DNA of 64,000 bases from Escherichia coli. Lineage in GTDB: Bacteria > Pseudomonadota > Gammaproteobacteria > Enterobacterales > Enterobacteriaceae. Of this stretch, positions 38,454-41,400 are shown piece by piece; position 1 is the stretch's first letter; each line of letters opens with the position of its first letter. Under the pieces are notes generated by a model. It searched no databases and was not told the DNA's origin. It saw only the letters and a program-made list of their open reading frames with translations. The DNA lies in NCBI RefSeq assembly GCF_003334405.1, contig NZ_QOWM01000004.1; one strand, 5' to 3'. A program made the position numbers and the translations under genes.

Positions 38454-41400
38454 TTACTCAACAGGTTGCGGACGCGCAGGAGCGGCAGAGGCATGATGTG
38501 TTGCCGTATGACCACCTGCGGCACCTTTACCTTCGAAGGCAAAAGTAGGGCGCTGCCAGTCACTGTGACGCGGTGCCTCCGGAACATATTCCGGTGCTGG
38601 AGCGCGCGTCATTGGCGCGGTAGCGTGGTTATGCTCAACGGTGACCTCAGGTTCGACCGCAGCTACCGTTTCAACTTCTGCTGCGACTTCAGCGACTACT
38701 GGCGCGGCAGGTTGAGCAACAACTTCAGGTTCAGCAACTACAACCTCAGCAGTTTCGACAACTTCTTCAATATCTGCCGTCTCTTCCTGCGGTTCAACCA
38801 CCGGTTCTGCTTGTTCTGCAACTTCCTGGGCTACGGCAACATCAGACTCGGTAATCACCTGCGGCTGTTCAGTTACCGCGGCAGCGATCACTTCAGGATG
38901 CGTCGTTTCAACCACTTCCGGTTGCGGTTCGGCAACCTGAACGGGGGCTTCTACGACACCGGCCACTTCTTCAACAACTGGCGCGCTAACAACCGGTTCG
39001 ATAGCGGCGGCGACAGGGACCTCAGTCACCATCGGCTGCACATGTACTTCTTCCTGTTCGCGCTGCTCTTCAACCTGTACATCTTGCGGACGTACAATTG
39101 GATAGCGGATCCAGACTTTGCCAGAGGCCAGTTCCGGAGACGCGCACGCTACGGTCAACGGCATTGGCGACTGGGTTGGATAACGCTCGTCACGATAGCG
39201 ACGACGACGCTGACCACTTACGCGCAGGTGACGAGGCGAGCGGCGAGAACGACGCGGCATGCCACCGTTGTCACGGTTATCAGCATTGTTCTCTTCTTGC
39301 TGTTCTGGTGCAGTTTGCGCTACGACTGGCAGCGGGACTTTCACCAGTTCTGTGCGTGGAGCTGGCGCTTCCTGAACAATTGGTTCGGCAGCGACAGTTT
39401 CTTCAACCACCGGTGCGACTACCGCTTCTTCGGCTACGCTTTGCTCGTAACGCACTTTCTGATTGAGCTGACGCTGTTTACGACGCGGCTGAACCGGACG
39501 TACACGTTCTTCCTGTTCGGTTTCCTGAACAGATTGCTCTTCAACATTCAGCGCCTTCGCTTCTTGTTGCGCCTGACGTTTATCATCATTACGGCGGCGG
39601 CTACGTTCACGACGCGGCGCTTGCTGCTCGTCGGCGGTACGCGCTTTTTCCGTTACCTCAGCCTGCTGACGGCTCTCACGCGTCTCGGCAGTCTGCTGCT
39701 GTGCCTGGCGACGATTACGACGGTTTTCTTCGCGATTATCGCTGCCTTCAGTACGTTCACTACGGGTGTCGCGGCGCTCATTACGGTCACGGCGGTTGTT
39801 CTGACGAGGCTTGCGACGATCCTGTTGACGTTCCGGTTTCGCTTCTGCTTTCGGTGCTGGTTGCTCGGTCGGTTTGGTTTCTTCACCACCGCTGAACAGC
39901 GCTTTCAGTGCGCCGAAGAAGCGGCTCAACAGCCCAGGTTGTGCAGGAGCTGCTGGTGTTGCCGGTGCAGCTTTCGGTGCTGGAGCTACAACAGGCGCGG
40001 CAGGTTCAGCTGGCGTTGGCGCAGGCGGCACATCCGGCATGGCAAAGGTTGCCAGCGCAGGTTGTTCCGGACGCTTACGTTCAGCGAACTCTTCTTCAGA
40101 CGGCAGCGCCATCGCTTCTTCATGCAGCTTCGGCAGCATGTAGCTTAAGGTTGGGGTTTCTTCCCCTTTACGCACGCGCAGCACGTGGTAGTGCGGGGTT
40201 TCCATCTGATCGTTTGGCACAATTACACAGCGCACACCGTCCTGACGAGTTTCAATGGCATTTACCGCAGAACGTTTTTCATTCAGCAGGTAAGAAGCGA
40301 TTGGCACAGGAACAATGGCGTGAACTTCCTGGGTGTTCTCTTTCAGCGCTTCTTCTTCGATCAGACGCAGAATAGAGAGCGACAGCGATTCGTTGTCACG
40401 CACGGTGCCAGTACCAGAACAACGCGGACAAACGTGATGACTGGATTCACCCAGTGATGGGCTCAGGCGCTGACGGGACATTTCCAGCAGGCCAAAGCGA
40501 GAAATATGGCTGATTTGAATACGCGCACGGTCCTGACGCACCGCTTCACGCAGACGGTTTTCTACCGCACGCTGGTGGCGTACTGGCGTCATGTCGATGA
40601 AGTCGATAACAATCAGGCCGCCGAGGTCACGCAGGCGCAGCTGACGAGCAATCTCATCGGCAGCTTCGAGGTTAGTGTTAAACGCGGTTTCTTCGATATC
40701 GCCGCCGCGGGTCGCGCGTGCGGAGTTGATGTCGATGGCCGTTAACGCTTCGGTGCTGTCGATAACAATGGAACCACCAGACGGCAGACGAACTTCACGC
40801 TGGAAGGCGGACTCGATCTGTGACTCGATCTGGTAGTGGCTGAACAGCGGGATCTCGCCGGTGTACAGTTTGATTTTGCTGCTGAAATCCGGGCGACCTA
40901 ATGCAGCGATATGCTGACGTGCCAGTTCGAGCACTTTCGGGTTATCGATAAGGATTTCGCCGATGTCCTGACGTAAGTAATCGCGGAATGCGCGAACGAT
41001 TACGTTGCTCTCCTGATGAATCAGGAACGGGGCCGGGCGGCTTTCAGCGGCTTTTTTGATGGCTTCCCAGTGTTTCAGACGGAAGCTTAAATCCCATTGC
41101 AGCGCCTCAGCAGATTTGCCGACGCCAGCGGTGCGCACGATAAGCCCCATGCCTTCCGGCAGTTCAAGGCTTGCCAGTGCTTCTTTTAATTCGGTACGGT
41201 CGTCGCCTTCGATACGGCGAGAAATGCCACCCGCGCGCGGGTTGTTCGGCATCAGAACCAGATAGCTACCCGCCAGACTGATAAAGGTGGTTAATGCCGC
41301 GCCTTTGTTGCCGCGCTCTTCTTTATCGATCTGAACAATGACTTCCTGACCTTCACGCAACACATCTTTAATGTTGGGACGACCATGAGCACTGTAGTTA

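Follow-up and report, generated by a model that had tools for sequence, protein, structure and literature searches.

A 560-codon open reading frame opposite the scaffold half of Escherichia coli rne is probably a non-coding shadow of the RNase E gene

The rne locus and the features around it

The window analysed here is a 64,000-nucleotide stretch of Escherichia coli DNA (contig NZ_QOWM01000004.1 of assembly GCF_003334405.1), and the real gene at the locus of interest is rne, which lies on its minus strand. The 1061-residue sense protein matches the RNase E equivalog of NCBIfam (NF008074) over residues 1-1061 with 2008.4 bits (cutoff 908), and the Rne/Rng family TIGR00757 with 570.8 bits (cutoff 325.95). 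The sense strand encodes RNase E at full length, and rne is the sole annotated feature under the match in 5,426 of 5,426 E. coli genomes. The allele in the window is that of K-12 and is 100 % identical to O16:H48 records. The sequences of the MTS, AR1, HBS, AR2, EBS and PBS microdomains are as expected at the residue ranges given in PMC4435900, and the sense protein has the composition-biased non-catalytic half that carries them, the disorder of this half being taken from the literature.

The gene sits in the neighbourhood flgL-rne-rluC: flgK and flgL are annotated, a 319-aa ORF at 42212-43171 occupies the position of rluC, and the gene at that position in a related contig carries PF01479 and PF00849. 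The rne5 element is matched with a score of 260 bits (gathering score 180; E = 1e-81). The features used below are as follows, the segments of the protein having been placed by mapping the coordinates of PMC4435900:

38300..38328, plus strand: terminator-like hairpin of flgL, 12 pairs, then T7; upstream of the antisense ORF
38411..38434, minus strand: intrinsic-terminator-like hairpin of rne, then TTTTATTT; on the plus strand, upstream of the antisense ORF
38448..38450, plus strand: TAA at which the stop-to-stop antisense stretch begins, just beyond the rne stop codon
38454..41639, minus strand: rne, ribonuclease E, 1061 aa (ORF list and NCBIfam)
38457..38579, minus strand: PNPase-binding site, residues 1021-1061
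38466..40148, plus strand: in-register antisense ORF, TTG start, 560 codons, opposite rne codons 498-1058
39090..39140, minus strand: segment of the scaffold half
39198..39254, minus strand: AR2, arginine-rich RNA-binding segment, residues 796-814
39447..39485, minus strand: segment of the scaffold half
39708..39830, minus strand: AR1, arginine-rich RNA-binding segment, residues 604-644
39894..39947, minus strand: segment of the scaffold half, among its few Leu/Ser-bearing islands
40146..40148, minus strand: TTA codon of rne Leu498, read as TAA on the plus strand, where it terminates the antisense ORF
41664..42000, minus strand: rne5, RNase E 5' UTR autoregulatory element (Rfam RF00040)

Register, composition and length of the antisense frame

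The original prediction had placed a 560-codon frame at 38466-40148 opposite rne, and both the ORF list and an analysis of register recover it. The ORF spans the whole non-catalytic region (residues 530-1061) and the final 32 codons of the catalytic domain, and the frame, measured between stops, is open from the TAA at 38448 as far as that at 40146-40148. Its offset relative to the codons of rne is 0, such that each antisense codon is the exact reverse complement of a sense codon and stops are possible only where the sense strand has TTA, CTA or TCA. These codons occur in rne at positions 5, 70, 116, 151, 184, 222, 247, 273, 299, 395 and 498, and at none of codons 499-1061, where 15 Leu and 20 Ser residues are encoded with a stop-making share of 0/35, compared to 11/83 in the N-terminal half. 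The remaining two plus-strand frames contain 21 and 8 stops over the same stretch, and the next-longest in-register antisense run in the window, in ptsG, has 375 codons.

The C-terminal half had been described as rich in Arg, Pro, Glu, Ala and Val, and the residue percentages for codons 498-1061 agree (A 14.7, E 14.5, V 11.9, P 11.3, R 9.9 and Q 8.2 %). Leu and Ser make up only 2.8 and 3.5 % here, as against 9.9 and 6.6 % in the N-terminal half, and 17 of the 29 Leu and Ser residues between 530 and 1061 lie within the named microdomains, which comprise 149 residues. The bias is bipartite in the manner reported in PMC4435900, with an Arg-rich proximal part and a distal part rich in Ala, Glu, Pro and Val (V 24.7, E 20.6, A 17.1 and P 11.8 % for residues 851-1020).

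The same half had also been called repetitive at the DNA level, which is true only in a weak sense. There is an excess of short words (59 repeated 9-mers compared to 21.7 +/- 6.5 in codon shuffles, and 10 repeated 12-mers compared to 0.8), but there are no substantial repeats: Tandem Repeats Finder returned a single two-copy array of 24 nt, and a repeat search found only short families of 60-86 % identity. DNA repeats leave the missing stops unexplained. Rather, the frame is open because it is in register with rne and because the scaffold half is poor in Leu and Ser, and thus the cause first offered for the open frame stands as regards composition, while repetitiveness gives way to composition plus register.

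How surprising the length is depends on the null model. For an average protein composition, the full antisense run has P of about 3e-7; for the RNase E protein, a run of at least 563 codons has P = 0.033 under permutation of the synonymous codons of rne itself and P = 0.005 under window-wide synonymous usage. The median open run expected from the RNase E protein sequence is already 237-296 codons; the observed 563 codons go somewhat beyond what that sequence would predict, and composition accounts for nearly all of the run-length effect. As the ORF was chosen post hoc for its length, being the longest among thousands of genes, values of 0.005-0.03 represent no significant excess, and the length of the run fits what the sense protein and its synonymous usage can give.

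The difference in stop-making codons between the two halves of K-12 rne, together with the permutation P of 0.033, might also be produced if the speed or accuracy of translation placed rne itself under selection to do without TTA, CTA and TCA, all rare codons, in its scaffold half, with the ORF as a by-product. Across 80 Enterobacterales, however, the trend runs in the opposite direction, the stop-making share of Leu and Ser codons being 12.5 % in the C-terminal half and only 7.0 % in the N-terminal half (Wilcoxon P = 1.5e-9). No avoidance or depletion of these codons in the C-terminal half was found among these species, and a stop-free C-terminal frame, expected in 6.9 of them, was observed in 4. 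Synonymous divergence is also higher in the C-terminal than in the N-terminal half of rne in every pair compared, which points to weaker, not stronger, synonymous constraint there, and a CTA codon at Leu581 segregates in 120 of 5,426 E. coli genomes. We consider codon selection improbable as the source of the open frame.

Conservation, substitution patterns and expression signals

The antisense frame is open in the majority of sampled E. coli alleles. Of 5,426 complete E. coli genomes, however, at least 317 have a stop in it, UTI89 and the type strain being two of them. The CTA at Leu581 is a natural CTG>CTA variant that falls inside the minus-strand segment 39894..39947. A TCA at codon 594 (P594S) is present in 187 of the 5,426 genomes, the type strain ATCC 11775 among them, and UTI89 likewise has its antisense stop at codon 594; a CTA at codon 947 is present in 10. 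A divergent genome labelled E. coli has one stop in the frame, and in the C-terminal half there are five antisense stops in E. albertii, three in S. enterica arizonae, 4-6 in Citrobacter and 2-3 in Enterobacter. Nearly all representatives of other genera have stops in this frame, and in other species many of them fall at about rne codons 790-880. Long runs turn up sporadically in unrelated genera (705 codons in K. oxytoca, 674 in Pantoea piersonii, 606 in Pluralibacter, 557 in Phytobacter and 546 in Kluyvera georgiana). By a rough calculation, the allele sample should hold some 1.5 stop-creating synonymous variants; 0-1 are seen, which is no depletion.

The substitutions themselves track the frame of rne and not the antisense frame. 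Between K-12 and E. albertii, the C-terminal half differs at 39 first, 20 second and 177 third positions of rne codons, and in eight comparisons by the NG86 method dN/dS is 0.09-0.21 for the sense frame and 0.78-1.60 for the antisense frame.

A signal in the other direction comes from an OLGenie-like analysis of 11 E. coli alleles, in which dNN/dNS is 0.25-0.32 (15 NN and 22 NS variants) with P of about 5e-4 against a mutation-weighted null. The control set consisted of species pairs with a broken frame, flgL, flgK and the N-terminal half of rne; the broken-frame pairs gave 0.49-1.27, flgL 1.08 and flgK 0.71, values that rest on small counts and are indicative only. The low ratio is due wholly to purine transitions at first positions (A<->T, E<->K and V<->I), which were realized on 19 of 347 paths. 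Pyrimidine transitions at first positions are no less silent in antisense and were realized on 0 of 129, indicating that it is exchangeability in the sense protein, not antisense silence, that decides which changes survive. The ratio dSN/dSS, which does not depend on the sense protein, amounts to 0.64-0.78 and lacks significance. Two mutational accounts of the low dNN/dNS were tried and rejected: weighting by kappa (2.24) shifts it only from 0.25 to 0.31, so that transition/transversion bias is not its full cause, and a strand-asymmetric excess of sense G<->A mutation is ruled out by equal rates at synonymous sites (purine 0.082, pyrimidine 0.076).

Codon usage of the antisense ORF is the mirror image of that of real genes. 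The sense-versus-antisense log-odds per codon is -0.49 for the antisense ORF and +0.48 +/- 0.11 for 58 genes of the window (minimum 0.26), a distance of about 9 SD. The putative product would contain 15.4 % R, 13.2 % F, 12 % L, 4.3 % C and 3.0 % W with only 0.4 % K and 0.5 % P; it has no match in NCBIfam and none in Pfam, even at E <= 10. The original prediction did not regard the ORF as a gene and proposed comparing conservation and codon usage on the two strands. The first comparison finds the frame broken in the 317 or more E. coli genomes and in the nearest species, the second gives the log-odds above, and its reading is supported by both as well as by dN/dS and the absent family match.

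A consensus scan located no sigma-70-like site on the plus strand downstream of the two terminator-like hairpins and ahead of the ORF, and the flgL hairpin would halt read-through from flgKL short of it. No Shine-Dalgarno sequence precedes TTG 38466 at a workable spacing; the in-frame ATG 38493 has an AGGAG 10 nt ahead of it. Antisense transcription is frequent in E. coli (PMC7457138), and a functional non-coding RNA from the plus strand might conceivably regulate rne, the open frame being incidental, although this general observation is nothing specific to the locus. The single sigma-70-like site in 38100-40400 lies within the end of flgL, upstream of the flgL terminator, and equals the 0.9 expected from shuffles; an Rfam search of 38000-42400 at E <= 0.1 gave no family other than rne5 in the 5' UTR; and the third positions of rne evolve rapidly across the region. 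Such a regulatory RNA appears highly improbable.

In protein databases the antisense ORF is represented by 268 unnamed gene calls only, with inconsistent starts and ends, nearly all of them from metagenome assemblies among the members listed; one member is labelled as a hypothetical protein of Pseudomonas aeruginosa. In the two contigs that we inspected, a 100-N scaffold gap lies at or in the 3' end of rne, and rne itself is uncalled. An exact look-up with five start variants found only the version that begins at ATG 38508 in the protein collection. A literature search for any ORF or transcript described on the strand opposite rne found nothing, the occurrences of "rne" in recoding papers not being whole-word. 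The names "rne" and "ribonuclease E" are absent from the text and from 18 supplementary files of the largest survey of E. coli antisense ORFs by ribosome profiling that was consulted, although these files may use locus tags.

The remaining alternative is a young overlapping gene confined to E. coli, with its own plus-strand transcript, after the manner of olg1 and olg2 of P. aeruginosa. In its favor are the intact frame in most sampled alleles, the length of 1,683 nt, which is nominally unusual under the synonymous-codon nulls, the AGGAG ahead of ATG 38493 and the low within-species dNN/dNS. Against it, the premature stops reach the type strain and UTI89 as well as the divergent genome and E. 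albertii, and the natural CTA581 and TCA594 alleles come close to a stop-mutant test. Stop-making codons are not avoided in the family, and stop-creating synonymous variants are not depleted. The dNN/dNS signal is limited to one class of sense replacement, and antisense dN/dS is about 1. The scan gave no promoter-like site, two terminator-like hairpins lie upstream, the codon usage departs from that of the window genes, and there is no family match; that the profiling survey does not name rne counts weakly in the same direction. We regard such a gene as exceedingly improbable. It is scarcely credible, in particular, that K-12-type alleles would encode a very young E. coli-only protein starting at ATG 38493 or 38508; were this true, the low within-species dNN/dNS would mean incipient purifying selection.

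Interpretation and relation to known systems

We interpret the plus-strand ORF 38466..40148 as probably a non-coding "shadow" of rne and not a gene, with a probability of about 0.95 on the sequence evidence, and we infer that it is not translated into a functional protein. The antisense codons mirror those of rne, so that TAA, TAG and TGA require sense TTA (Leu), CTA (Leu) and TCA (Ser), respectively. The scaffold half, an intrinsically disordered region in which Ala, Glu, Val, Pro, Arg and Gln abound, supplies few Leu and Ser codons, largely within short binding motifs, and in the K-12 allele all 35 of those past Leu498 happen to be other synonyms, leaving 563 open codons.

The locus is a caution, in that a large disordered region poor in Leu and Ser can yield a gene-sized ORF on the other strand, and the 268-call cluster illustrates how a spurious antisense ORF leaks into public protein collections. 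It should also be useful as a negative control for methods that detect overlapping genes, since both an ORF-length test and an OLGenie-type dNN/dNS are nominally "positive" here despite a frame that is plainly not conserved. If it were a true gene, its 1,683 nt would exceed every antisense overlapping gene so far proposed in prokaryotes, the longest cited being olg2 at 1,536 nt and a Deinococcus ORF at 1,644 nt (PMC8850804); the evidence is strongly against this.

On its sense strand, the locus matches the RNase E scaffold region described for gamma-Proteobacteria (PMC4435900) completely, with no difference. On its antisense strand, it shares with pop (antisense to ompA) and the EHEC candidates the situation of an ORF embedded opposite an E. 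coli housekeeping gene. Those candidates, by contrast, were nominated by ribosome-profiling signal and measure 93-603 nt (PMC7103648; PMC9927249; bioRxiv 10.1101/2020.11.18.388249). The frame relation (-1) is the same as that of olg1 and olg2 of P. aeruginosa, which at 957 and 1,536 nt are similar or smaller in size, and the tests applied to those genes (a synonymous-codon length null, the distribution of stops in relatives and frame-specific constraint) are mirrored here. However, olg1 and olg2 are supported by RNA-seq, ribosome profiling and mass spectrometry and by depletion of stops within their clade (PMC8850804), whereas for the rne antisense ORF, known from sequence alone, stops segregate within the species and constraint is seen in the sense frame only.

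The closest counterpart is the shadow ORF, a long antisense ORF in the "-1" frame of an ordinary gene, and the rne antisense ORF matches this kind. Shadow ORFs are likewise in register, with stops solely at sense TTA, CTA and TCA; their length is likewise governed by the Leu and Ser content of the sense protein and its synonymous usage; and they too show mirror-image codon usage, a lack of homologues, and sporadic loss and regain among relatives. The rne antisense ORF differs from them in its length, which is unusual at a genomic GC content of about 50 %, because its host region is the largest disordered segment of an E. coli protein (PMC5758883) and is poor in Leu and Ser.

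The antisense frame and its register with rne

We judge it highly probable (about 0.95), from the sequences compared here, that the long open frame opposite rne is a shadow ORF, a spurious antisense ORF in register with the sense codons of an ordinary gene. It would arise from the in-register frame combined with the Leu/Ser-poor composition of the RNase E scaffold half. The 560-codon frame is present in the ORF list exactly as the original prediction gave it, and the sense strand here encodes RNase E's non-catalytic scaffold half, a well-known region. The queried stretch matches rne in 5,426 of 5,426 complete E. 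coli genomes and is 100% identical to O16:H48 records, the window being E. coli K-12-like; rne is the sole annotated feature beneath the match in every record among the matches listed. The relevant features are:

38454-41639, - strand: rne, 1061 aa (RNase E equivalog NF008074, 2008 bits against a cutoff of 908)
41664-42000, - strand: complete rne5 autoregulatory 5' UTR element (RF00040, 260 bits, model positions 1-333 of 333)
38466-40148, + strand: antisense ORF, TTG start, 560 aa
38300-38328, + strand: flgL terminator, a 12-pair hairpin then T7, preceding the antisense ORF (consensus scan)
38411-38434: rne terminator hairpin, preceding the antisense ORF on the + strand (consensus scan)
Upstream, + strand: flgK and flgL, neighbours of rne
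Beyond rne: 319-aa ORF at the rluC position (ORF list)

The antisense ORF lies at offset 0 relative to the rne codons, so that each of its codons is the reverse complement of one rne codon and a stop is possible only at an rne TTA, CTA or TCA. There are 11 such codons in rne and none beyond codon 498, where the Leu498 codon, TTA, supplies the TAA terminating the antisense ORF. Past this point rne has just 15 Leu and 20 Ser codons (CTG, TTG, CTC, AGC, AGT, TCT and TCG); the remaining two + strand frames across the same stretch contain 21 and 8 stops. Residue counts (A 14.7, E 14.5, V 11.9, P 11.3, R 9.9 and Q 8.2%) agree with the prediction of an Arg/Pro/Glu/Ala/Val-rich C-terminal half, in which Leu and Ser together make up 6.3%, against 16.5% in the N-terminal half. 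The RNase E microdomains were placed by published residue ranges (PMC4435900):

565-582: MTS
604-644: AR1
719-731: HBS
796-814: AR2
834-850: EBS
1021-1061: PBS

Their 149 residues hold 17 of the 29 Leu/Ser residues of RNase E 530-1061, and the AEPV-rich linker 851-1020 is nearly devoid of both.

The C-terminal half had also been called repetitive at the DNA level, which is weakly true: repeated short words exceed codon shuffles (9-mers ~3-fold, 12-mers ~12-fold), but no tandem array exceeds 24 nt and the direct-repeat families are short, with 60-86% identity. We therefore reject DNA repeats as the reason for the open frame, which we attribute to register and composition.

With an average protein composition, an open run of 563 codons would have P ~3e-7. 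When the RNase E sequence was held fixed and only synonymous Leu/Ser codons were resampled, the median run was 237 codons with window codon usage (P(>=563) = 0.005) and 296 codons when rne's own codons were permuted (P(>=563) = 0.033), so that composition accounts for most of the length. The residual is a 1-in-30 to 1-in-200 outcome, unremarkable because the ORF was noticed precisely for being the longest. The second-longest in-register antisense run in the window (375 of 477 codons) lies opposite ptsG (55141-56574, + strand; NF008301, 1004 bits), a further candidate shadow ORF in a host gene of quite different composition.

Selection and conservation

In comparisons of K-12 with eight other alleles or species, differences in the C-terminal half are concentrated at rne third positions (39/20/177 at positions 1/2/3 for E. 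albertii), with sense dN/dS of 0.09-0.21 and antisense dN/dS of 0.78-1.60. Codon log-odds per codon are -0.49 for the antisense ORF, against +0.48 +/- 0.11 in 58 window genes, a mirror image of gene usage. The hypothetical product, rich in R, F, L and T (Cys 4.3%, Trp 3.0%) and almost without Lys or Pro, had no match in Pfam or NCBIfam. In every comparison (L001-L008 and L022, loci from other genomes), dS was higher in the C-terminal than in the N-terminal half of rne (0.60 vs 0.40 for E. albertii), which points to stronger constraint on synonymous change in the catalytic half, or to codon bias there.

Relatives carry stops in the C-terminal antisense frame. They occur at rne codons 554, 569, 592, 723 and 827 in E. 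albertii, at 771, 827 and 865 in S. enterica arizonae, and at 947 alone in a divergent genome labelled E. coli; Citrobacter species have 4-6 and Enterobacter 2-3. Very long runs recur sporadically across genera (K. oxytoca 705, Pantoea piersonii 674, Pluralibacter gergoviae 606, Phytobacter 557, Kluyvera georgiana 546). Across 80 Enterobacterales rne loci, one genome per species, we looked for avoidance of antisense stops and found none: 4 species have a stop-free C-terminal frame, against 6.9 expected from each species' own usage, and TTA/CTA/TCA make up 12.5% of pooled C-terminal Leu and Ser codons vs 7.0% of N-terminal ones. In Citrobacter koseri NCTC10786 (L038) the rne ORF is just 636 aa while the tblastn match extends to residue 808, at the sequence end, which probably reflects a frameshift in the C-terminal half or faulty assembly there.

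Within E. coli, allele-specific 41-mers, seeding a match only with the central variant present, were searched in the 5,426 genomes. CTA at Leu581, which leaves the RNase E protein unchanged, was found in 120, TCA at 594 (P594S) in 187, including the type strain ATCC 11775, and CTA at 947 in 10; in UTI89 the first antisense-frame stop likewise falls at the codon-594 position. Eight of 10 further genomes, evenly spaced in ranking, keep the full frame, as expected from 1-3% divergence. From K-12 rne, 25 sense-synonymous one-step paths lead to an antisense stop; ~1.5 such variants were expected in the allele sample (a rough estimate from synonymous variant rates) and 0-1 seen. On these sequence comparisons the antisense ORF is not conserved and appears unconstrained, which, with its codon usage, supports the prediction that it is not a gene.

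In E. coli urine isolate GN4738 (NZ_CM177114.1, L095 1501-4077), the annotation gives rne as an intact CDS of 858 aa that lacks residues 743-945 through an in-frame deletion; AR2 and the enolase-binding site are lost with them. This is either a natural variant of the degradosome scaffold or an artefact of assembly. In E. coli strain 135 (NZ_CP080260.1, L002 2001-5300), rne reaches 1099 aa through tandem duplication of residues 902-939 (38 residues of the AEPV-rich linker, one V/I difference between copies); flgL and rne are separated there by an inserted GNAT-toxin/TacA-antitoxin pair (1084-1868).

A nominal signal of antisense constraint

One statistic nominally points to antisense constraint. 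An OLGenie-like analysis that partitioned 106 variants from 11 E. coli alleles gave a dNN/dNS of 0.25 (0.31-0.32 when weighted by mutation type; P ~5e-4 against a mutation-weighted null), below the values for broken-frame species pairs (0.49-1.27), flgL (1.08) and flgK (0.71). However, the antisense-silent variant class mixes unlike changes: among first-position transitions, those between purines (A<->T, E<->K, V<->I) occupy 19 of 347 paths, and the equally antisense-silent ones between pyrimidines (P<->S, R<->C, H<->Y and others) 0 of 129. Transition bias does not explain this contrast and strand-asymmetric mutation was ruled out; it reflects residue exchangeability in RNase E. dSN/dSS, which is independent of the sense protein, was 0.64-0.78 and non-significant. 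The low dNN/dNS is a weak and probably artefactual signal, and a warning about such statistics with composition-biased host genes.

Expression signals, database entries and known antisense genes

The consensus scan found no sigma-70-like site between the two terminator hairpins and the antisense start. TTG 38466 lacks a usable Shine-Dalgarno sequence; an AGGAG lies 10 nt ahead of ATG 38493. A 546-aa version from ATG 38508 belongs to a 268-member cluster in a public protein collection. Those listed are ENA metagenome calls, unnamed and inconsistent in where they start and end (416, 320 and 527 aa); a further member, 96 aa long and from a contig of 289 nt, is labelled 'hypothetical protein, partial [Pseudomonas aeruginosa]'. 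Both contigs inspected, ENA metagenome scaffolds with the antisense 'protein' called and rne itself uncalled, have a 100-N scaffold gap at or in the rne 3' end (L084 2893-2992; L085 2815-2914). Assemblies may break recurrently in the composition-biased C-terminal half, which would seed databases with spurious antisense proteins; for gene callers the ORF is a trap.

The largest profiling survey of antisense ORFs in E. coli names neither 'rne' nor 'ribonuclease E' in its text or in the 18 supplementary files searched. The closest parallel in frame, size and tests applied is P. aeruginosa olg1/olg2 (PMC8850804). Unlike the rne antisense ORF, which is known from sequence alone and lacks stop depletion, olg1/olg2 have ribosome-profiling and mass-spectrometry support and show stop depletion within their clade (PMC8850804).
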